A stretch of DNA of 32,000 bases from Methanosarcinales archaeon (GTDB lineage Archaea > Halobacteriota > Methanosarcinia > Methanosarcinales > Methanocomedenaceae): contig JAUVLO010000004.1 in NCBI GenBank assembly GCA_030600695.1, positions 1 through 32,000 on the forward strand. Reading direction: 5' to 3'. The position numbers and the translations under genes were made by a program. The stretch's first letter is position 1, and each line of letters begins with the position of its first letter. This document shows, piece after piece, positions 1 to 27,627 of the stretch. The notes beneath the pieces were generated by a model, which worked only from the letters and a program-made list of their open reading frames with translations, did no database searches and was not told the DNA's origin.

Positions 1-606
1 GAGACCATCGCATTATTTCATGACATCGGTCGCTTTGAACAATTCAGGACCTATGGCACTTTCAATGATAAGGTATCGGAAAACCACGCAACTCTCGGGC
101 TGAAGGTTTTAGAAGAAACAAACGTATTAAGCCGGCTCACAAAAACACAACGCTCCATCGCTTATAAAGCCATAGGCTATCACAATGTACGTAAACTTCC
201 CGAGCCAGCAGACGAAAACCCTGATTGTTTACTGTATTCAAAACTATTACGGGATGCGGATAAATTGGATATATGGAGGGTTGTGACAACTTATTATGCA
301 CAACGTCATGAGCATCGCAACACTGCATTGGAGCTTGAACTTCCTGATACACCTGAATATTCACTTTATCTTGTTGAAGATATCCTTAACAACCGGGTTT
401 CAAATTCCCATGCCCTGAAAACATATAATGATATGAAACTCATGCAACTGGGTTGGATATTTGACATTAATTTTGCCCGGACATTCCTTTACATTCAACA
501 AAGGCAGATCATTGAGAAAATCATTGCCACACTGCCCGATACTGAAGATATTCGAAAAATTCAAAACCACTTAAAAGAATATCTGGAAAAAAAAGGTAAT
601 TCCTGA
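1..606 (+). CDS. HD-domain metal-dependent phosphohydrolase; 5' end lies outside the window
   Basis: Frame 1 is open from base 1 (ETIALFHDIGRFEQF...HATLG...LLRDADKLDIW). The HD motif and downstream DADK motif are typical of the HD superfamily. Track ORF 265..606 is the same frame. TGA stop at 604-606. Confidence 0.75.
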   Translation, partial: ETIALFHDIGRFEQFRTYGTFNDKVSENHATLGLKVLEETNVLSRLTKTQRSIAYKAIGYHNVRKLPEPADENPDCLLYSKLLRDADKLDIWRVVTTYYAQRHEHRNTALELELPDTPEYSLYLVEDILNNRVSNSHALKTYNDMKLMQLGWIFDINFARTFLYIQQRQIIEKIIATLPDTEDIRKIQNHLKEYLEKKGNS

Positions 607-651
607 TCCCAAATATAAAAGGGACACTGTATCATATTTCAGTTTTGTTCA

Positions 652-763
652 CGTATAGGAAATTATAAACGCATTTCGATATCGATATAGTTAATTTTTA
701 TTGGTCTCAATCAAATCTTTTGACAGGATTTACAGGATTGGAACGTATCCTGTCAATCCTGTC
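652..763 (+). repeat. E1 repeat: conserved ~70-nt flank with the tcgatatcga palindrome, plus an ACAGGAT-unit hairpin (722-763)
   Basis: gtataggaaattataaacgcatttcgatatcgatatag...tcaatcaaatcttttgacaggatttacaggat-tggaacgt-atcctgtcaatcctgtc. An inverted copy lies at 11333-11469. Confidence 0.8.
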
Positions 764-814
764 TAAAATTTCCAATTTATTGAGATATGGATTTCACGTT
801 GCATCGTCTGTGCA

Positions 815-980
815 TATTGAATAGTCGCCGCCGCCAACAGTTGAAATATATATTCTGTGTAATTTTTAAGACGCATAGTACACAGAGACACACAGAGCGT
901 TTTTTCCCATACTCTGCGTACTTCTGCGCACTCTGCGGTTAATATCGAATTGATTCCAGGCCCTATTGGTTCTTTCAATC
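815..980 (-). repeat. A-type repeat, diverged copy A0, with a CGCAGAG-unit hairpin (881-938)
   Basis: Shares tgaatagt...gccgccgcc..gttgaaatatatat...hairpin...ttctttcaatc with copies A and B, but the hairpin units differ (cacagag/ctctgcg). Confidence 0.65.
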
Positions 981-981
981 A

Positions 982-1050
982 CCCTGCCACCGCAGCCCGC
1001 AAGGGCGGCAGTGTGGCAGCCAGCCTTATGGATTCGTGCGAGTTTGGAAC
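982..1050 (+). repeat. F repeat copy 1 (GC-rich imperfect hairpin module)
   Basis: ccctgccaccgcagcccgcaagggcggcagtgtggcagccagccttatggattcg...ttggaac. The second copy is at 5627-5695. Confidence 0.75.
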
Positions 1051-1175
1051 CGCAGATAAACGCGGATGAACGCAGATATTATAGCTAAAATTTGATTATA
1101 TTTAAATTTACACTGCATAATTATAATTAAAACCCACAATCGCCGTTATCTGTGTTCATCTGTGTTCATCTGTGG
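1050..1175 (+). repeat. Inverted 28-nt stuttered arms (CGCAGAT units) flanking a 70-nt AT-rich spacer
   Basis: Arms are ccgcagataaacgcggatgaacgcagat (1050-1077) and atctgtgttcatctgtgttcatctgtgg (1148-1175). By hand there are 23 Watson-Crick pairs, 4 G:T pairs and 1 mismatch. Confidence 0.8.
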
Positions 1176-1243
1176 TTAATACTGAAATAAATATAGTTGG
1201 CGTCCTTTCTGCACTAACCCACTCCTAAACTGATGCCTTCGTA

Positions 1244-1439
1244 CGGGTGCCCATGCGCTGAGTGTGGGGCACGGGAGTGAATAGTAGAGTGTGCTGCCAG
1301 CAGCGGCTATGGCTGTGAAAATATATAATTTATGAAATACTGTACAGCAAAGCACGCAAAGTAAAGGGCACAACGTCTTTGCGAACTTCGCGCTCTTTGC
1401 AGTGAAACACTTAACGGCACCCTTCAATCTGCATGCCTC
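1244..1439 (-). repeat. A-type repeat copy A, with a GCAAAG-unit hairpin (1347-1400)
   Basis: Near-identical to 2254-2469: cgggtgcccatgcgctgagtgtggggcacgggagtgaat...gaaaatatataatttatgaaatactg...gtctttgcgaacttcgcgctctttgc...gcacccttcaatctgc. Confidence 0.85.
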
Positions 1440-1605
1440 GGTGGTTAATATTGAAATGATTGCCAGCCACAGTCCCATTATATGCTCTCACGCCCCCCTC
1501 CTGTGCTGGTGCCTGGATGCGGGGCATATGCGCTGGACGCGTAGATTGGGATTTAATAATAGTGGGATCCCCCGCGCTAAAGCGTGCGTTGATCAGTAAA
1601 AAAAG

Positions 1606-1863
1606 TCAATAGACGTTTCCACGAACTCCGATATCTTCAATAATTACTGTATTTTTATCACTCTCTATTCTATAGACGATTCTATACTTCCCAACGCGCA
1701 AACGAAACTTGCCCGCCAATTCCCCTTTTAACATTTTAATGTTCTTACCGGAAGCAGGTTTTTCCAGTAATGTTTCAATTGCACGATTAATTCTCGCTGT
1801 ATTTTTATCATCGAGTTTGTTATAGAATTTAACAACTCGATCGTGAAGAAGGATTTCATACAT
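1606..1863 (-). CDS. Type II toxin, RelE/ParE family
   Basis: 85 aa with ...KMLKGELAGKFRLRVGKYRIVYRIESDKNTVIIEDIGVRGNVY, the characteristic RelE/ParE C-terminal pattern. It overlaps the upstream small ORF by 8 nt. An oligo-T run follows the stop on the minus strand. Confidence 0.8.
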   Translation of the reverse strand: MYEILLHDRVVKFYNKLDDKNTARINRAIETLLEKPASGKNIKMLKGELAGKFRLRVGKYRIVYRIESDKNTVIIEDIGVRGNVY

Positions 1864-2101
1864 GGCGTTTCACTTTGTTCCATGAAGTGAATTCCTGCAT
1901 TTTACCCATCTCCCATGCCTGATCAGCAGTTCTAATATTTCGCATTGACTCTTCATCAGCAAGAATTTCAAGGGTAGCATCAAGTTCTTCTTTTTGTTCG
2001 AGATATTCGATAAAATCGAGAACTACTTTTAATCTATCAGGTGATAAGACATCCAACTTTTCAATTGCTTTTCTTTTATAATTAACTACATGAACTGCCA
2101 T
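1856..2101 (-). CDS. Putative antitoxin partner of the RelE-family toxin
   Basis: 81-aa ORF translationally coupled to the toxin by a 4-codon-scale overlap, in the usual antitoxin-first order. No family signature recognised by eye. Confidence 0.6.
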   Translation of the reverse strand: MAVHVVNYKRKAIEKLDVLSPDRLKVVLDFIEYLEQKEELDATLEILADEESMRNIRTADQAWEMGKMQEFTSWNKVKRHV

Positions 2102-2253
2102 TATCTTGCCTCCTGTTATAGAAACTGAATTAATTAATATTAATACTATGCAATAGGTTGCCTCATAATCTCATTAAAGTGAGAACTTTGCCACCAACTT
2201 CCATTATGTACGATATATCTGCCCGACCATAGACGGTCTGGTTTGCCTCCCTG

Positions 2254-2469
2254 CGGGTGCCCATGCGCTGAGTGTGGGGCACGGGAGTGAATTGTGGAAT
2301 GTGCTGCCGGCGGCGGCCATGGCTGTTGAAATATATAATTTATGAAATACTGCACCGCAAAGCACGCAAAGGACGCAAAGTTAAGGTCACAACGTCTTTG
2401 CGAACTTCGCGCTCTTTGCGGTGAAACAATCAACAGCACCCTTCAATCTGCGTGTATCTGCATGCCTCT
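2254..2469 (-). repeat. A-type repeat copy B, with a GCAAAG-unit hairpin (2353-2423)
   Basis: Direct-orientation copy of 1244-1439 on the other side of the relE cassette. The hairpin has 3 units per arm: caccgcaaagcacgcaaaggacgcaaag / ctttgcgaacttcgcgctctttgcggtg. Confidence 0.85.
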
Positions 2470-2776
2470 GCGTTTTATGCTACCCAGCCTTGGCCCGTTC
2501 CCCCCACTTCTCCACTCTCCCGCCGCCCGTCATTCTGTATTTGTCCACATCTCAAAACATATAGATCAAGCTTAAATAGATTTATATATAATTCATACAT
2601 ATGAGTATAATGATGATTGTGGGCGGGTACAATTTTTATAACTAACCCCCACTCCCAAACCCCCGCTCACAAATTCATCATTTGTGGAACTAATGAAGTG
2701 GTGTTTTTTTAAACCATGGATTGTTGTGATATTCCTGATTGCCAACTTTAGTAAACCAGATAATGTCTATGTTGCA

Positions 2777-3661
2777 CTACACATCAAGAGAATTTATCTG
2801 TTTTGCAGCCTCAGTGAACATCTGGTCTCCAAAGTTCTCAATGTTAGAAACAGGTTGACCAGCATGTACATCAACCATTATGAAATATTCATCCTTCACA
2901 GTTTCTCCGTGATAACAATAAAGGTCGTCACTGATCGAAGCTATGTAATAATTACTGGACATTCCGCCAATGGGAAGGAAAGATGAATCTGAAAGTATAT
3001 CCCAATATATGTGTAATCCGTTACTGCGGCTGGGTCTTATTTCTGCAATTTGCTGGACATAACCCTTCCACAGCCAAAATGTGACATTTCCTTTAATAAG
3101 AGGAATAATATTCCACTGAGAAGAATAATAATCCAGGACCTGGTTTGCAGCCTCAGGACTTTCCATTTTATAAACTAAATATTCCACTTCAAAATTAGTT
3201 GAAGTACCGTTGCTTAAATATAAAACACCGACTTTATCAACCACCTGTGATTCGAATTGCCAGTTAGTCTCATCATTCATGGAGTCCATTCTGGTCGTAT
3301 CTAATTGTACCCGCCTCATCCCACTGATATTATCAGGGAAAAACCGGGCAAATTCCGGTTTAAGAACAGGTTCAGGTATATTACCGGTAAATAATACAGG
3401 CTGGATGTCAGTACTTATACCAGGTTGTATACCAGGAGGTGGCGGGCCTGTAGGATAATCTGCCTGATTGGTTCCGCCGCCGGATAGCAGGTATGCGATC
3501 ACCAGTAATAATCCGGCAATGATAGCTATGTATGGTAGATTGTTGGCCGGTCCTTTACTGCTATCTGTCTTTGCTGTCTTTGGAATCTGCTCACTGTGGT
3601 TATTCCGGGCAGTATCTTCTGTTTTTTTAGTACTTCGTTTCTTTTTAGCCAAAAATATCAC
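2777..3661 (-). CDS. Hypothetical membrane-anchored protein: basic N-terminus, one TM helix, Pro/Gly linker, globular C-terminal domain
   Basis: 294-aa ORF with hydrophobic segment LPYIAIIAGLLLVIAYLL followed by PTGPPPPGIQPG. Composition looks coding. The overlapping + strand ORFs look like shadows. Confidence 0.6.
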   Translation of the reverse strand: MIFLAKKKRSTKKTEDTARNNHSEQIPKTAKTDSSKGPANNLPYIAIIAGLLLVIAYLLSGGGTNQADYPTGPPPPGIQPGISTDIQPVLFTGNIPEPVLKPEFARFFPDNISGMRRVQLDTTRMDSMNDETNWQFESQVVDKVGVLYLSNGTSTNFEVEYLVYKMESPEAANQVLDYYSSQWNIIPLIKGNVTFWLWKGYVQQIAEIRPSRSNGLHIYWDILSDSSFLPIGGMSSNYYIASISDDLYCYHGETVKDEYFIMVDVHAGQPVSNIENFGDQMFTEAAKQINSLDV

Positions 3662-3689
3662 TTTTTTTCATTTGATAACGACATCATAA

Positions 3690-4484
3690 TTACACATTTA
3701 TTAATAAGAGTTTTGTGACAGCGAATATCAGGTCACCATACAAAACAGCTACAAAGAACCCAAGTGTAATGGGTATCATGAACGGCAGGCCCGGAGTAAC
3801 CCATACCCGCCTGTCAATCAGGCCCTCGGCAGCGAATCCTTCAAGTTCTTTAACAGTTTCCTCGTCGATACTTGCCCCCCCGCGCCTGAACTTTGTATAA
3901 AATTCACCCTCAAGGAGATAACATTCTTCGATCAACTTGATATGTCTGCCCAGCAAATTTGAAATGTCTGTCTTAAACCCAACAAAGAGATACGCTGGCC
4001 GTTTCATGATCTCGCCTGGTTTTAAGGTGAACAGGTTATAGAAAAACAGGAACAAGGGTACCACTACGGTCAGCAGGACAGAATTCCCAAATACACTAAA
4101 AGCGAAAAGATCGATAAGGGGCACGCCATTCAATGGCATCAGCACTCCGAACAGTTCAATTGTTGGGTAAACGGGTATAATAATAGCCAGGACGATCAGG
4201 CTCTTGGCATCGGCTCCTCCAAAAGCACCGAACTGGAATAAGATATAGACAAATACGAATATTACACCCGCTGAAAACAAAAGCCTGACCAGGGCAGGTA
4301 TCCCACCGTTTATAATATCATATGTAACAAAAATGAGGGCACCTGCCAGCATTACTTTCCAAAGCTGGTTAGATACACGCCTTGTCAGGATATCCGTATA
4401 GCAGGAATACAGTAAAAATGGAGTACAATACAGTATTTTCAACAAGTCAATAAAAACCATTGTATCTACCATTTTATTTTTCAA
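3690..4484 (-). CDS. Archaeal type IV prepilin/preflagellin peptidase (A24 aspartyl peptidase family)
   Basis: Polytopic membrane protein. An FGAFGGADAK motif (GxGDxK-type catalytic Asp) and an upstream Asp-containing loop fit the FlaK/PibD/EppA family. Confidence 0.75.
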   Translation of the reverse strand: MKNKMVDTMVFIDLLKILYCTPFLLYSCYTDILTRRVSNQLWKVMLAGALIFVTYDIINGGIPALVRLLFSAGVIFVFVYILFQFGAFGGADAKSLIVLAIIIPVYPTIELFGVLMPLNGVPLIDLFAFSVFGNSVLLTVVVPLFLFFYNLFTLKPGEIMKRPAYLFVGFKTDISNLLGRHIKLIEECYLLEGEFYTKFRRGGASIDEETVKELEGFAAEGLIDRRVWVTPGLPFMIPITLGFFVAVLYGDLIFAVTKLLLINV

Positions 4485-4836
4485 TTATATCAATTATATC
4501 TATAATACGCATCAGTGGGTAATCCAGTGATTGGTCGTATTTTAGTCCAACTGTTGCCGTTGTGCCGCCAAAAGTGATCCTGGCCTCCACGTCCAGCATC
4601 CGGCCTTCCAGTTCGCAGTACCTGAACTTCTCACCGGTCCTGCTGGCGACCATGTCCCTGTCTATCGTTACCAATATTTTTTCAACATAGGGCTGCACTG
4701 ATATGCTTTCCTGTATGGCCTGCTCCAGGCTGTCTACAGTACTTATATTTACCGGAGCGCCTGTGAACTGGTGATACAGGGCACCCAATTTGATGCCTGC
4801 CTCAAATAATGCGTTGTCCCTTTCACTTATAACCAT
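4474..4836 (-). CDS. mptD: Archaeal dihydroneopterin aldolase MptD-like (methanopterin/folate branch)
   Basis: MVISERDNALFEAGIKLGALYHQFTGAPV... matches my memory of the PF04038/MptD signature. I chose the ATG at 4836 because the track extension to 4971 runs into a non-coding repeat. The gene overlaps the peptidase gene by 11 nt. Confidence 0.6.
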   Translation of the reverse strand: MVISERDNALFEAGIKLGALYHQFTGAPVNISTVDSLEQAIQESISVQPYVEKILVTIDRDMVASRTGEKFRYCELEGRMLDVEARITFGGTTATVGLKYDQSLDYPLMRIIDIIDIIEK

Positions 4837-4947
4837 GGTTAGCAACTTACAAGTGAAAATATAAACCATTTGCTGTTTAATACCAGGCAGTGACATGGAT
4901 GGGTATCCGGCAGTCCGGGGGTGCAAAGTGGATGTTATGCTGGTTAG

Positions 4948-5098
4948 CTGCCGGGTGCCCATCTCGCTCAACTCCGCCCCCGGCCCCCTTGTTCACGGCA
5001 TACAGGGCGGGCTGGCAGGCGTTTTTGTGGTGCCTTGTGTATGCATGGGTGTCAGTGCCCGGACCTCATATTCTACTGTAGAACGATGGGGATTCATG
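4948..5098 (+). repeat. C-type repeat copy C
   Basis: ctgccgggtgcccatctcgct...gggctggcaggcg...tgcatgggtgtcagtgcccggacctca...acgatgggg. The partner copy is at 5726-5868. Confidence 0.7.
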
Positions 5099-5165
5099 TT
5101 CTGTTGGTTGGTGGGGGGGCAGATGTCGCCATATTTATATCTAAAAACAACTAATTAATTGCAAG

Positions 5166-5375
5166 GTGAAAATATTGATTTTTAAGGTAGTTCTGGAATT
5201 AGCTGAAGAGGGTGGCTATGTAGTATATGTACCTTCTCTTCCCGGATGTATTTCTGAAGGTGATAGTAAAGAAGAAGCACTAGAGAACATCAAAGAGGCT
5301 ATAGAACTATATTTGGAACCAACCGAAAATCCTGTTTTAGCTTACAGTGCCGAACTCGCTGAAGTTGCTGTCTAG
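5166..5375 (+). CDS. hicB: HicB-family antitoxin
   Basis: 69 aa with ...EEGGYVVYVPSLPGCISEGDSKEEALENIKEAIELYLE, a classic HicB N-terminal fold signature. GTG start, TAG stop. Confidence 0.8.
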   Translation: MKILIFKVVLELAEEGGYVVYVPSLPGCISEGDSKEEALENIKEAIELYLEPTENPVLAYSAELAEVAV

Positions 5376-5388
5376 GCAGGTATGCCAA

Positions 5389-5613
5389 ATGAAGTTACCA
5401 GTCGTTTCAGGCGAGAAGGCAATTAAGGCATTTTTAAATGCTGGTTTTGTAAAAGTCAGGCAGCGTGGAAGCCATGTAAGATTGGAAAAGATTGAAGGTA
5501 ATGATATAATTAAACTTACAGTTCCATTACATAATCCAATGAAGAAAGGGACTCTGAGCAGATTAATTAAAGATGCTGGTTTAACAATCGATGAATTTGT
5601 TAATCTGTTGTGA
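5389..5613 (+). CDS. hicA: HicA-family mRNA interferase toxin
   Basis: MKLPVVSGEKAIKAFLNAGFVKVRQRGSHVRLEK... is a typical HicA. The ATG at 5389 is in frame with track ORF 5347..5613. Confidence 0.8.
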   Translation: MKLPVVSGEKAIKAFLNAGFVKVRQRGSHVRLEKIEGNDIIKLTVPLHNPMKKGTLSRLIKDAGLTIDEFVNLL

Positions 5614-5626
5614 TTTTATACCCTAC

Positions 5627-5695
5627 CCCTGCCACCGCAGCCCTTCAGGGGCAGCAGGTGGCAGCCAACCTTGTTGATTCGAATAAGCCTTGAAC
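5627..5695 (+). repeat. F repeat copy 2
   Basis: ccctgccaccgcagcccttcaggggcagcaggtggcagccaaccttgttgattcgaataagccttgaac. Confidence 0.75.
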
Positions 5696-5725
5696 TTATT
5701 CCGCCCCCTCTATTCTTCGGCTTTC

Positions 5726-5868
5726 CTGCCGCCCATCTCGCTGCGCCCTACCCTGGCGTTCATCTGGCATGCAGAACGGGCTGGCTGGCGCTTTGCTTTA
5801 ATAGTGTCTCGTGGATGCATGGGTGTCAGTGTCCGGACCTCACTCTACCGTGGGACGATGAGTCTTGG
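5726..5868 (+). repeat. C-type repeat copy D
   Basis: ctgccgcccatctcgct...gggctggctggcg...tgcatgggtgtcagtgtccggacctca...acgatgag. Same orientation as copy C, with several indels (roughly 70-75 percent similarity by eye). Confidence 0.7.
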
Positions 5869-5940
5869 TCTAAGAAGTTCCGCAGTACTGGCAAACCCAT
5901 AGCATATGGTCGGAAAATAAGAGTATAACAAAATATTAAG

Positions 5941-6012
5941 TGCACCGACCGGGATTCGAACCCGGGTAGTGGGCTTGGAAGGCCCAAGTCATAGCCGCTA
6001 GACCATCGGTGC
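5941..6012 (-). tRNA. tRNA-Gly (anticodon UCC), no encoded CCA
   Basis: The reverse complement reads GCACCGA-TG-GTCT..GAC-T-TGGGC-CTTCCAA-GCCCA-CTAC-CCGGG-TTCGAAT-CCCGG-TCGGTGC-A. This gives a 7-bp acceptor stem, 5-bp anticodon stem, TCC at positions 34-36, and a canonical T arm. Confidence 0.9.
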
Positions 6013-6195
6013 GCAAGGGAATTGTACTTCCTGTATAGTCTTATTCGATTTAATTGTTGCGGATGTTTACATTATTTCCCTGGAATTTTGCATTTGAAAG
6101 ATTATTTACATGCCGCCGCCAGACAATAACCTCCTGCTCCCCTTGATTTTTCAAATAATCGTTGAAATTGATCAAATCCAAATATCAATCAGGTG

Positions 6196-6543
6196 CTACA
6201 CCAGTTTCAACTTGCCCACGACCTTGTCCAGTTTCTCAACAGGTCCGGGCCCGATACCCAGTACAGTAACGGTCCCAGGTGGTATCTGGGTAAGTCCGGC
6301 ATCAGTGATAAGGGCAGTAGACAGCCCTTCCCTGCGTGCCGACTCCTTCAACAGAAATAGGTCCTGCAGCGTGCCGGTCTTAAGTACGACCTTCTTCTGC
6401 CCGTCCTTCATCCAGGAATCACGTTCCTTCTTATCAGCAAAATCAGAGGCGGTTACGGCTGCATGTGCCACCTGTACAGCCAGCTTGCCTTTTGAAAGTT
6501 TAAGGTCATCACGGGTTACGATACACTGCTTGTATTCAGTCAT
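6196..6543 (-). CDS. pth2: Archaeal-type peptidyl-tRNA hydrolase (Pth2)
   Basis: MTEYKQCIVTRDDLKLSKGKLAVQVAHAAV...KVVLK...ITDAG.T.I..GT.TVLGIGP is the PTH2 family pattern. I prefer the start at 6543. Confidence 0.85.
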   Translation of the reverse strand: MTEYKQCIVTRDDLKLSKGKLAVQVAHAAVTASDFADKKERDSWMKDGQKKVVLKTGTLQDLFLLKESARREGLSTALITDAGLTQIPPGTVTVLGIGPGPVEKLDKVVGKLKLV

Positions 6544-7279
6544 TGATGAGCATCCCATCCTTATCGAATTTCAATGAGTTCGTAGTTCGCTGGTGCCATT
6601 CTTCACCAAGCTTCAAGGCTTCATCCCTGTTGAAATCACCTATCTCCACATCCTCGTCAGTGAATCCGGATATGGACGACATAGGTATGTACAGTTTCTC
6701 AGCCCCGTGCTTGAACACAAGATTCCCGGCATCAATGGAAATAGTCTCACCGATCCTCTGCCCGTGCTGCACCACGAACTTGCAGAGTATGTCCTGTTTT
6801 GATATGGGTTTTTCCTCATCCTGCCCCTGGTCGGGTGGTTGGGATTGAGGAGCTCTTAGTGGTTCGGCAGGTTGGGGTTGAGGGGCTTTTATTGGTGCGG
6901 CAGGTTCACCTGGCACTTCTTTTTCGGCCTGCGCCTTTGATGGAACCGGATGGGGTATGGACATCGAGTGCCAGTCCAGATCGTCATGTTTGTGTTCCCA
7001 TTTGCTGCCCACCTGCCTGCTCTGTTTTGTTTGATTTTCATCCTTCCCCGGGCTACCGGGTGCTGCCTCTGCACCTACACTTTTCTGTTCAACCGCAGAA
7101 CCCTGGGCAGAATGCACATTCCCGGCAGCTACTACTGGCTTTTTGTCTTCCCCGGCAACTACCACCGGCTTCTTATCTTCACCGGTAGTTGCTACCTGCT
7201 TCTTATCTTTCCCGGCAGCACCGGAATCATCTGTCCCACATCGCCCTATTAGTTTGTTGAAAGTGTCTTTAAATCCCAT
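6536..7279 (-). CDS. Hypothetical protein with a disordered repeat-rich N-terminal two-thirds and a compact C-terminal domain
   Basis: 247 aa. Contains 10-aa tandem repeats GKDKKQVATT/GEDKKPVVVA/GEDKKPVVAA and a PQ-rich stretch. The C-terminal ~85 aa (KFVVQHGQRIGETISIDAGNLVFKHG...) looks globular. Lies in an apparent operon with pth2. Confidence 0.6.
   Translation of the reverse strand: MGFKDTFNKLIGRCGTDDSGAAGKDKKQVATTGEDKKPVVVAGEDKKPVVAAGNVHSAQGSAVEQKSVGAEAAPGSPGKDENQTKQSRQVGSKWEHKHDDLDWHSMSIPHPVPSKAQAEKEVPGEPAAPIKAPQPQPAEPLRAPQSQPPDQGQDEEKPISKQDILCKFVVQHGQRIGETISIDAGNLVFKHGAEKLYIPMSSISGFTDEDVEIGDFNRDEALKLGEEWHQRTTNSLKFDKDGMLIND
7121..7210. repeat. In-gene tandem repeat, 3 x 30 nt
   Basis: cccggcagctactactggctttttgtcttc / cccggcaactaccaccggcttcttatcttc / accggtagttgctacctgcttcttatcttt. 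These encode the 10-aa repeats of the 6536..7279 protein. Confidence 0.85.
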
Positions 7280-9492: not shown

Positions 9493-9570
9493 TAGTATAC
9501 TGAACTGTATCCTCAAAAAGAAGTGACTTTTTAATTTATTCTGGATAAATGGATCGTGGCAAAAAAGATT

Positions 9571-9640
9571 CACCGCAGAGGACACAGAGAGGCGCAGAGA
9601 TGTGTTGTTTTTCTCTGTGTGCCTTTTTGCTCTATGCGGT
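9571..9640 (+). repeat. Decayed CGCAGAG-unit stuttered hairpin followed by an ATATATATTT box (A-type module in + sense)
   Basis: caccgcagaggacacagagaggcgcagag-atgtgttgttttt-ctctgtgtgcctttttgctctatgcggt, then ...gtgatatatattttatcc about 60 nt downstream. Confidence 0.6.
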
Positions 9641-9766
9641 TTTTTGAATAGTCCCAGTAAATAATAAAAAGTCTCGTAATTCATGGCAACAGTGATATAT
9701 ATTTTATCCACTGCCGAAATTTTCCGAGTCCTAAAGAATCGACCCGGCATCCTTTCATTTTAATAA

Positions 9767-10221: not shown

Positions 10222-10827
10222 TTAGTATTCAAGCATGACTTTTGCTTTTATTTGAGCTACATCTTGTTCTATCATTGAAATCCTCTCATCAAAATGAGAC
10301 CTAAAATCATCTTTAGTGGAGCGGATTTCGGATGTTATTTCTATTCTGTTTTGATCGATTTTACCACTAAGATTATCTCCAAGATGATCGATCTTACCAC
10401 CAAGATAATCGATCTTACCACCAAGATTATCTCCAAGATAATCGATCTTACCACCAACTCCATCGATTTTTTGGCTGAGATTTGAGTTCATTTCTCTCAT
10501 ATATCTCACTGCTGCATCCATTCTTTCGTAAGTTGCTGTGGTCAGGTCTTCTTCTCTAATAACATCAAATGTTCTATACTCACCAGTTGGCTTTTTATAA
10601 ACCACGTCAATTTTTTCTACGCGTATAGGGTACTGAGTAATATTAATTTTTTCAAGCAATTCTTTGATATCGTCTTCTTTCCCTTCTGAGATAATCTGCA
10701 CTGTCCCGTCATCAAGATTTTTAACATATCCATTAAGATTCAGATTAAAAGCGATCTCATCAATGAAATCTCTGAAACCTGCTTTCTGAACTCTACCGTA
10801 TACTATGATCTCTGCACGTTTTTCCAT
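10222..10827 (-). CDS. Acylphosphatase-like domain fused to a 7/11-residue tandem-repeat and coiled-coil C-terminal region
   Basis: The N-terminus AEIIVYGRVQKAGFRDFIDEIAFNLNLNGYVKNLDDGTVQIISEG is the acylphosphatase signature. The C-terminus holds repeats GVGGKID/YLGDNLGGKID/YLGGKID/HLGDNLSGKID. Confidence 0.75.
   Translation of the reverse strand: MEKRAEIIVYGRVQKAGFRDFIDEIAFNLNLNGYVKNLDDGTVQIISEGKEDDIKELLEKINITQYPIRVEKIDVVYKKPTGEYRTFDVIREEDLTTATYERMDAAVRYMREMNSNLSQKIDGVGGKIDYLGDNLGGKIDYLGGKIDHLGDNLSGKIDQNRIEITSEIRSTKDDFRSHFDERISMIEQDVAQIKAKVMLEY
10354..10470. repeat. In-gene tandem repeat with alternating 33-nt and 21-nt units
   Basis: atcgattttaccactaagattatctccaagatg / atcgatcttaccaccaagata / atcgatcttaccaccaagattatctccaagata / atcgatcttaccaccaactcc. 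Confidence 0.9.
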
Positions 10828-11145: not shown

Positions 11146-11332
11146 ATCGGCCTGGGTGCGGTAAGTCAACAGACTGTTGTTATTGTAAATACACTGTGGT
11201 ATATTTAGGCATTCCTAAGTATATAGTTTGTGAAAGATTTACAAGGCTTTTATTGCGAACAATGAATAACTCTTTATACTCAAATTATTCTGGCAAATGG
11301 GAGGATTTTCGTGGTGACTTTATGGACCTGAT

Positions 11333-11469
11333 TTACAGGATGCACAGGATGCACAGGATGAGGATGTCAACCAATATCCTGTAAATCCCGTAAATCCTGT
11401 CTGAAGATTTGATTGAATTTAAGAAAATTACTTATATCGATATCGAAATGCGTTTATACTTTCCTATAC
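11333..11469 (-). repeat. E1 repeat, inverted copy, with an ACAGGAT-unit hairpin (11335-11401)
   Basis: The reverse complement reads tgtataggaaagtataaacgcatttcgatatcgatataagtaattttc...tcaatcaaatcttcagacaggatttacgggatttacaggat... Confidence 0.8.
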
Positions 11470-11676
11470 ATTAAATAAAATTATAAATAAATGAATTCTT
11501 GAGATTTGCAGCTATTCCGCAATCAGGCAATTTTCTTAAAAACCATTGACCTTCTATAAAATTAGCACTCAAAATGTTCTTTAGAGACAACATTCATCCA
11601 GGCAAGTAGTCACTCGTTGACGATTATAATTGTCCGGATGCGTTTTGAACACAAAAATCAAGAAAAACTGGCTAAC

Positions 11677-27417: not shown

Positions 27418-27627
27418 GACGCAGATTAACGCTGATTAACGCAGATGCAGTATCCACTTTAAATCTAAGGGTAATTTAAAAATTATTAGACAGGATTAAC
27501 AGGATCGACAGGATATACCGCAACGCAACATCCTGTAAATTCTGTAAATCCGGTCAAAATACCATGCTTTTTGAAGTGGATACCAGATGCAACCTTAAAT
27601 CAGCGTAAATCTGCGTGAATCAGCGTC
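27418..27627 (+). repeat. Nested stuttered hairpins: outer CGCAGAT/CGCTGAT arms enclosing an inner ACAGGAT hairpin (27489-27555)
   Basis: Outer arms are gacgcagattaacgctgattaacgcagat and aaatcagcgtaaatctgcgtgaatcagcgtc. The inner hairpin is gacaggattaacaggatcgacaggatat-accgcaacgcaac-atcctgtaaattctgtaaatccggtc. Confidence 0.8.

Follow-up and report, generated by a model that had tools for sequence, protein, structure and literature searches.

We analysed a 32,000-nucleotide (nt) stretch of DNA from a Methanosarcinales archaeon of the family Methanocomedenaceae (contig JAUVLO010000004.1, positions 1 to 32,000; hereafter the window), in which two direct repeats, C and D, bracket the toxin-antitoxin (TA) genes hicB and hicA. 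C and D belong, as neighbouring units, to a repeat family that is modular and non-coding, forms arrays and occurs in a lineage of ANME-2-type (anaerobic methanotrophic) Methanosarcinales. The units stand in same-strand arrays with TA-rich cargo, hicBA occurs in at least four genomic contexts, related loci differ in their units and cargo, and the breakpoints between them lie near a short conserved core. Recombination between units probably shuffles the cassettes, with TA addiction retaining them and the repeats around hicBA being a matter of array structure.

Two repeats around hicBA and the family to which they belong

A preliminary description of the locus placed C at 4948-5098 and D at 5726-5868, and took them for non-coding direct repeats enclosing only hicB, hicA and a short module, F. 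All of this was borne out apart from the ends of the repeats. C and D align at 71.5% identity over 137 nt (blastn, E=3.5e-15), and a 28-nt block common to both, ATGCATGGGTGTCAGTGNCCGGACCTCA, is confined in the window to positions 5041 and 5815 and arose in none of 100 shuffles. The mean column identity in a MAFFT alignment is 79%, with frame-breaking indels of 1, 2, 5, 5 and 7 nt; copies of the family differ by many single-base indels, and none of the eight open reading frames (ORFs) that overlap the repeats matches Pfam. Judged from these frames, C and D are non-coding. Gene and domain scans agree that the interval between them contains hicB, hicA and F, and nothing else. The family profile gives other limits, 4951-5163 for C and 5704-5938 for D (both on the plus strand), so that D reaches the neighbouring tRNA gene.

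Further copies were sought with patterns and profiles. An exact pattern from the common block, run against the GTDB species representatives, returned two contigs of Methanosarcinales metagenome-assembled genomes (L002 and L003; sequences used for comparison are numbered in this way throughout), and a degenerate pattern of the core region returned 17 metagenome contigs. The degenerate family pattern had 0 matches among viral contigs, and positions 4886-5940 of the window had no match in plasmid or phage databases. A profile built from 8 copies and run on 25 loci gave 60 matches in these 25 loci; the repeats are thus not private to the hicBA locus, as had first been supposed. In two profile searches C scored E=7.9e-46 and 2.7e-29, and D scored E=3.8e-44 and 3.2e-22. 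Because both were among the seeds of the profile, the independent support for their membership is their pairwise similarity to copies in L002, L003, L018 and L035. We found no description of this ANME-2 repeat family in the literature.

The units keep to one orientation. All 13 loci with two or more matches have their copies on a single strand (51 copies, 0 strand switches), an order with a chance of about 2^-38 under random orientation. Such loci contain 2-7 units, with a start-to-start spacing of about 0.1-2.5 kb. The 5-kb contig L002 carries five C/D-like copies, hicBA, a ParE/RelE operon, a second hicB and pieces of the A/B type described below, and adjoins a gene for a major facilitator superfamily (MFS) transporter, while L003 has one unit abutting a tRNA-Gly gene, without hicBA. 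Runs of head-to-tail units free of cargo were found in L009, L023 and L024, and to this extent the repeats occur irrespective of cassettes, an outcome that the preliminary description had named as evidence against its reading. The genes around the arrays are housekeeping genes, including hisF-lplA, dndB, and those for nitrogenase-like oxidoreductases and carbamoyl-phosphate synthase, among others. Some flanks are shared: a gene for 248 amino acids borders L025, L023, L015 and L019, and hisF-lplA borders L012, L014, L025, L022 and L011, with different arrays following in different contigs. Both flanks bound one array of ~3.6 kb in L025, whereas L012, which starts from hisF-lplA, runs for more than 9 kb without reaching the other of the two flanks.

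A unit is 115-250 nt long and non-palindromic. It begins with a C-rich 5' body of ~115 nt, in which the motifs CCAGCCCC..TCCTGCCGCC..CTTCACTCTGCCCGGGTGCCCGTCCCGATCTGCTCC..CCTTGTGGTGTGGGGGCTGGCAGGCGCTTTT follow in this order and which closes with the core GGCTGGCAGGCG(C)TTTT; GCGCTTTT is the ending of nearly all bodies. The core is followed by one of at least three alternative types of tail, often with an AT-rich, TATA-box-like module at its end. The type 1 tail, to which that of C belongs, ends in CGCCATATTTATATC and the type 2 tail in GCTGTTAAAATATATTATTTATGAAATACTG. Cargo or a hairpin, or the two together, follow the tail; the hairpin is either F or one whose arms consist of tandem 7-10-nt sub-repeats, and a linker (..GGTTAATATTGAACTGATT) joins to the next body. 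In unit C the 5' body is truncated (4951-5009). The core GGCTGGCAGGCG follows at 5010-5021, and the tail is of type 1; the TATA-like end of the unit, ATATTTATATC, is at 5131-5141, ~25-35 nt ahead of the GTG of hicB. In unit D the 5' body leads to the core GGCTGGCTGGCG at 5779-5790; its tail resembles type 1, and its trailer reaches the 3' end of the tRNA. A further, truncated unit precedes C (4895-4951, plus strand) and consists of a tail-type fragment only (nhmmer, profile positions 127-186, E=1.4e-7), which matches L002 at 915-974 and 3773-3830.

Folded singly, on either strand, C and D did no better than shuffled sequences, the consensus fold of 29 bodies reached only -1.5 kcal/mol, and the covariation term for 16 whole units was near zero. 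A local alifold run proposed long-range pairing of CCTGCCGCC with the core; this stem was rejected, as the alignment contains no compensatory change and the tool's own consensus fold lacks the stem. Of the marks of miniature inverted-repeat transposable elements (MITEs), terminal inverted repeats bound neither C, D nor the segment from C to D, and C and D have no target-site duplications.

The hairpin module F (5627-5680, plus strand) is composed of CTGCCACC, a stem and GGTGGCAG, followed by CCAACCTTGT. Across 10 copies, 90.7% of the cells of the stem pair and two pairs show compensatory change; the RNA fold has a z of -3.75, and F always lies on the same strand as the units. It is repeated, as the preliminary description stated, beside a first repeat region (982-1036, plus strand; 85.7% identity to 5627-5681, blastn E=1e-8). 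In that region, repeat A (1234-1435, plus strand), on the relE side of a ParE/RelE operon, combines an A/B-type tail, a TATA-like module and a GCAAAG-type hairpin; its partner B (2244-2454, plus strand), placed by alignment to A, is 86% identical to it over 211 nt (E=3.5e-58). A and B match the C/D family profile weakly, via the TATA-like module (E about 0.03). The two pairs had been said to share a core, gggtgcccat..cgct, and a common ancestry. The core needs an indel, and the case is weaker than was claimed, but common ancestry is plausible at the level of modules because modules of the A/B type and the C/D type occur together in single units of L002.

Cargo, contexts of hicBA and breakpoints

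Cargo lies between the core or tail of one unit and the body of the next. Its place within the unit varies, since it may follow the TATA module or come immediately behind the core, and when it is forward-oriented a body follows within 20-100 nt. Of some 20 distinct cargoes, we counted about half as recognisable type II TA modules. These include vapBC in L013 (3420-4030) and L012 (4735-5380), a TumE toxin accompanied by a partner ORF in L013 (4578-5340), a Gp49/ParE-like toxin with a partner in L025 (3898-4499; L022 has it too), a ParE/RelE operon each in the window and L002, hicBA in the window, L002, L017 and L018, and the second hicB of L002. The non-TA cargo comprises a nitroreductase, an MFS transporter, a PPC-domain protein and several small proteins of unknown function. 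In the window, the ParE/RelE-type toxin (1606-1863, minus strand; Pfam ParE_toxin, E=5.6e-10) and its antitoxin (1856-2101, minus strand) form an operon (1606-2101) oriented opposite to the repeats. Repeat-bracketed TA operons recur in L002, L012, L013, L018 and L022/L025, and around hicBA in L034-L043. Bracketing is thus a pattern and not chance, as was suspected from the two modules of the window, but A/B and C/D are units of one dispersed family and not two private pairs.

The hicB gene (5166-5375, plus strand) encodes an antitoxin of 69 amino acids (Pfam HicB_lk_antitox, E=2e-11) and hicA (5389-5613, plus strand; scanned as 5392-5613) a toxin of 74 amino acids (Pfam HicA_toxin, E=4e-16). 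The genes are adjacent, separated by 13 nt, and both domains are present. By domains and gene order, hicBA is a HicAB type II TA system, with predicted toxin and antitoxin activities. Three genomes conserve the region upstream of hicB, in which ATATTTATATC lies at about -35 to -25; this sequence resembles an archaeal TATA box from which a leaderless or near-leaderless mRNA would be transcribed.

A protein 100% identical to HicA is encoded on 14 other contigs, and the cassette was found in at least four contexts. It lies between TiaS plus a gene for 161 amino acids and the gene for a pterin-binding protein in L035 and L037-L043, the same locus as in L017/L018; upstream of DUF763, an M20 peptidase and Mch in L034 and L036; beside the MFS flank in L002, where the cassette has 94% nt identity to window positions 5009-5629; and between mptD and tRNA-Gly in the window. 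A family unit stands directly upstream of hicB in every contig that covers the region, and F follows hicA directly or beyond one extra unit. Since the same cassette is found in other contexts, we conclude that it has moved. Two relatives of the pth2 region of the window, at about 75-78% nt identity (L027, 34-721 and 2396-2858; L028, 264-726), have hicBA and a pair of TumE and helix-turn-helix (HTH) genes a few kb from pth2 without a family unit, so TA operons near pth2 are independent of the repeat family.

Comparison of loci located the breakpoints. Homology of the window to the hicBA cassettes of L002, L017 and L018 begins at 5009, at the core of C, and the 5' bodies differ. Homology to L003 begins at 5778, at the core of D, and extends to 6101, taking in the D tail, the tRNA and the region upstream of the tRNA (window 5778-6101 against L003 2937-2641, 81.6% identity). 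L012 and L025 are 99.2% identical over 3371 bp, comprising hisF, lplA, one unit and the next body, and split at profile position about 114, past which L012 carries a nitroreductase and vapBC, and L025 a Gp49-like TA module and other genes. A Logan contig identical to window positions 2390-5021 (L001) stops inside B at one end and, at the other, exactly on the last base of the C core. Compared with L035, L018 has an extra 1.73 kb that contains three units, a gene for 147 amino acids and a relB-like cassette, between flanks that are 97-99% identical; the two sequences meet again ~25 nt ahead of the core in the hicBA unit. L022 and L025 differ by one unit, the extra copy being in L025. In copies that consist of the body only, similarity to the profile ends at positions about 100 to 145, mostly 113-117. 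As aligned here, the breakpoints are at or within ~25 nt of the core, and loci with 97-99% identical flanks differ by whole units and cargo.

Origin of the arrays

The tRNA-Gly(UCC) gene beside D (5941-6012, minus strand) was identified by ARAGORN and by Rfam (RF00005, 63.8 bits). The preliminary description saw in its 3' end an integration site, with hicBA as an integrative element and C and D as attL and attR. The arrangement has a likeness to tRNA-targeting integrative elements, in that a small accessory module beside a tRNA 3' end is bracketed by direct repeats, and D does abut the tRNA. L003 is a relative with a single unit at tRNA-Gly and without hicBA, although the other flank of L003 is non-syntenic and close relatives of the pth2 region have no tRNA-Gly at this place. 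The repeats, however, are not derived from the tRNA: 3' parts of 25 and 15 nt, with up to three mismatches allowed, occur in the window only in the tRNA itself. The family lies mostly away from tRNAs, as 0 of the 17 metagenome array loci contain one, and the same hicBA is found at non-tRNA sites. C and D share only 72-79% identity, no recombinase domain was detected in the 20 window genes scanned, and no integrase or transposase was found next to the arrays among 45 flanking proteins, considering the best 25 of 74 families. On the minus strand the D tail is the trailer of the tRNA and contains T-runs. Because the D tail, the tRNA and its upstream region (6013-6118, minus strand; conserved with L003 up to 6101) form one block that is conserved in L003 without hicBA, D appears to be resident at the tRNA and not a product of hicBA insertion. 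We regard integration at the tRNA as most improbable.

The gene order mptD, tRNA-Gly, pth2, which had been singled out for comparison, is not kept in relatives. In relatives of the mptD region (L004-L008, 85-91% nt identity), homology to the window stops at 4879-4885, the last common stretch being the region upstream of mptD (4837-4885, minus strand), and gives way to other genes, with no tRNA and no family unit. In relatives of the pth2 region (L026-L030) it stops at 6118-6119 and a thioredoxin-like gene follows, with no tRNA-Gly and no unit. Positions 4886 and 6118 are therefore taken as the left and right edges of a variable segment, and, as synteny is lost on both sides, this 1.2-kb segment is a junction of blocks that are not neighbours elsewhere. 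It may have arisen by rearrangement at repeat-rich DNA or, less likely, as a join made in assembly. An assembly artefact would make the contig chimeric across repeats, so that the linkage of mptD, hicBA, tRNA-Gly and pth2 exists in no cell. The mptD and pth2 blocks are adjacent in no relative, and the independent Logan assembly breaks inside B (2390) and C (5021), as a chimera might lead one to expect. The exact runs shared by C and D, however, are only 17 nt long, and runs of this length are too short to mislead assemblers at usual k values. The order unit-hicBA-F is found on more than 14 independent contigs, and the tRNA-Gly with a D-type tail is reproduced in L003. A chimeric contig is thus a very unlikely explanation. 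In more distant relatives of the pth2 region (L031-L033, 10349-15700), ~5.3 kb separate pth2 from the thioredoxin-like gene and contain a 454-amino-acid unknown protein, a weakly PycTM-like (Pycsar effector-like) protein and a catalase; this is a further variable spot, at the position that the tRNA-Gly and array occupy in the window.

The arrays resemble integron cassette arrays, including clusters of attC sites lacking integron integrases (CALINs). As in these systems, a conserved site is repeated in the same orientation around short cassettes whose content varies between close strains, TA operons are a major cargo (the Vibrio superintegron is likewise TA-rich), some of them reversed with their own promoters, and an adjacent recombinase is not needed. 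Two or more same-orientation sites less than 4 kb apart separate short ORFs here, as they do in CALINs, which are common (PMC9668308); the main text of that survey of archaeal integrons mentions neither Methanosarcinales nor ANME. A new system of this kind might use body and core as the site of a dedicated recombinase encoded elsewhere, with circles excised and inserted at cores. It would account for same-strand arrays of conserved delimiters around short TA-rich cassettes, for varying cassette content between loci with 97-99% identical flanks, for the clustering of breakpoints at or near one short core in several comparisons, and for a body conserved far beyond neutral sequence. An attC site, however, is an imperfect palindrome of 57-141 nt with R/L boxes (RYYYAAC...GTTRRRY), whereas the delimiter here is a C-rich sequence of ~115 nt that by inspection has no inverted symmetry, no consensus fold, and no R/L-box or AAC...GTT frame, and hairpins are not consistently at the cassette ends. 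A fixed G|TT crossover was not seen; the ends of body-only similarity scatter over ~15-30 nt instead of falling at a single nucleotide, and L035 and L018 rejoin ahead of the core. Cargo also stands at differing positions in the unit, many units are empty, units often have their own TATA-like module, and no IntI was seen beside the arrays, nor any integrase or transposase in the window or, within the flanking scan described above, next to arrays. We therefore consider a dedicated recombinase unlikely, and it is equally doubtful that ANME-2 archaea possess a new cassette system in which a ~115-nt non-palindromic site ending in GGCTGGCAGGCGCTTTT delimits mobile, mostly TA cassettes in chromosomal arrays.

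Units and hairpins could also be selfish or structural repeats that duplicate in permissive intergenic regions, where TA operons accumulate independently. The models for such repeats would be MITEs, repetitive extragenic palindromes (REPs) and bacterial interspersed mosaic elements (BIMEs). REPs are palindromes of 20-40 nt in alternating orientation, and the intergenic mosaic elements of Neisseria (NIMEs) are RS units with dRS3. The ANME-2 units have in common with E. coli BIMEs and REPs, and with NIMEs, that they are non-coding intergenic modules in variable combinations, clustered in arrays and serving as substrates of rearrangement. They differ in being long, in lying in one sense and in bracketing gene cassettes; the short GC-rich alternating palindromes of REPs and BIMEs (PMC2817692) are not present, no REP-associated tyrosine transposase (RAYT) was seen, and the mosaic, modular character alone is shared. 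As small non-coding multi-copy sequences they also recall MITEs, and the hairpin modules and a 435-bp insertion in hicB of L018 are MITE-like, but C and D have neither of the terminal features of such elements. Independent accumulation agrees with the cargo-free runs of units, with a ~78-nt hairpin that is a discrete insertion in L018 and missing from L035, with the unrelated MITE within L018 hicB, and with the hicBA and TumE genes near pth2 in distant relatives that have no family unit. It fits poorly with the strict same-strand order in 13 of 13 multi-copy loci, with the concentration of breakpoints at or near the core, and with hicBA, which keeps the same core, tail and F in every context, indicating that repeat parts travel with cargo. 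This explanation is possible, if somewhat doubtful. A reading at the level of RNA would have transcripts start at the TATA-like module, run through hairpin or cargo and the body, and end at the T-run of the core; the body would then be a shared 3' untranslated region or terminator, or part of a small-RNA gene, and arrays would be tandem transcription units. The TATA-like module does lie ~22-25 nt before the hairpins of empty units and ~25-35 nt before the GTG of hicB, nearly all bodies share the ending given above, a body follows within 20-100 nt of forward cargo, and the stem of F is kept through compensatory changes. No conserved structure or covariation was found in bodies or whole units, however, Rfam gave no match, reverse-oriented cargo does not fit, and a run of four Ts is a weak terminator in archaea. 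We consider this reading quite unlikely.

Recombination between units is the explanation that we favour. In the window, hicBA is the cargo of unit C, with F placed after the stop codon, and D is the next unit, its tail fused to the tRNA-Gly trailer. Cassettes would be moved, duplicated and deleted by recombination between units, in the simplest version by homologous recombination with body and core as the homology. Direct repeats would bracket the hicBA cassette because it sits inside an array, and TA addiction would favour its retention. The TATA-like end of the C tail may act as the promoter of hicBA, giving a leaderless or near-leaderless mRNA, a suggestion that draws on the general geometry of archaeal promoters. 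Several points weigh against this explanation. The evidence is wholly comparative, and no recombination event, transcript or protein partner has been observed. The body of ~115 nt is conserved beyond the need of homology arms and has no supported RNA structure. The 5' bodies that flank the difference between L018 and L035 are only ~70% alike, so this indel is not a simple recent crossover between the present units. Given the many units without cargo, repeats and TA modules may merely share permissive regions. Finally, all sequences are metagenome contigs, and joins across repeats, including those of mptD to C and of D to the tRNA, rest on assembly.

ANME-2 archaea are uncultured methane oxidisers of global importance. 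If the arrays are true cassette platforms, they would offer these archaea a route to acquiring and shedding small accessory genes that does not need the classical integron machinery. Should they instead be no more than mosaic repeats prone to recombination, they would still explain assembly breaks in ANME-2 and scrambled gene order between close relatives, and TA operons located there would be cargo of arrays and not remnants of tRNA islands. In either case the grammar of the units and the core motif are now defined and can be searched for in long-read genomes. A comparable setting was reported in 2026 for ANME-1 (PMC13385816), in which hicAB and other defence and TA genes are concentrated in highly variable genomic hotspots; ANME-1 belongs to another order, and the accessible part of that report describes no repeat-delimited arrays.

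Neighbouring genes and other repeats of the window

Between B and the hicBA cassette, the window encodes an ORF of 294 amino acids (2777-3661), an archaeal A24 peptidase (3690-4484) and mptD, for dihydroneopterin aldolase (DHNA; 4474-4836), all on the minus strand. The organism of the window is an ANME-2-type member of the Methanosarcinales. The nearest named homologue of MptD, at 92% amino-acid identity, is from an "ANME-2 cluster archaeon", and the stretch of mptD and the A24 peptidase has 91% DNA identity to that genome. Exact-protein look-ups returned no record for HicB, an 88-amino-acid HicA ORF or a 162-amino-acid version of MptD. Rfam, run on the whole window at the gathering threshold and on 600-6100 at E up to 10, found only the tRNA. 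On the far side of the tRNA, pth2 (6196-6543, minus strand) is followed by a DUF5749 gene (6536-7279, minus strand) with in-frame tandem repeats of 33 and 30 nt at 6831-6896 and 7121-7210. These give the protein a repetitive, low-complexity N-terminal region; its length is 247 amino acids, against 185-226 in relatives. A gene with an acylphosphatase domain (10222-10827, minus strand) contains interleaved periodic repeats of 21 and 12 nt (ATCGATCTTACCACCAAGAT...) at 10354-10461. The 9-mer CCTGCCRCC (up to one mismatch, both strands) occurs 35 times in the whole window against 9.4 expected from shuffles; it is present in body, core and F, yet because its enrichment is window-wide and includes genes, it is not specific to arrays.

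Palindromic hairpins with arms of tandem 7-10-nt sub-repeats were found at 872-943, 1050-1180, 1347-1410 and 2353-2423. The sub-repeats (CACAGAG/CTCTGCG, CGCAGAT/ATCTGTG and GCAAAG/CTTTGC) vary in copy number, and several hairpins end in GGTTAAT. The ~78-nt hairpin of L018 (3216-3293) is precisely absent from L035 (2687/2688) at ACTAAC|TGATTCC; sub-repeat hairpins thus act as separate small insertions with short direct repeats on either side. The insertion within hicB of L018 (5312-5749, ~435 bp), which L017 and L035 lack, carries 17-nt terminal inverted repeats (ACCTTACTTTGAAAGAT / ATCTTTCAAAGTAAGGT) together with an AAT duplication, and has no relation to the C/D family. The CACAGAG/CTCTGCG hairpin module of the window (872-959) has an intergenic copy ~8.6 kb away, at 9568-9657 (~67-68% identity), with similarity in both inverted and direct register. 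Another hairpin and repeat family (GACAGGATTTACAGGAT...ATCCTGTCAATCCTGTC) occupies three intergenic regions of the window (634-771, 11316-11488 and 27480-27560), and a 105-nt stretch of the first (634-739) is 81-83% complementary to 11384-11488.

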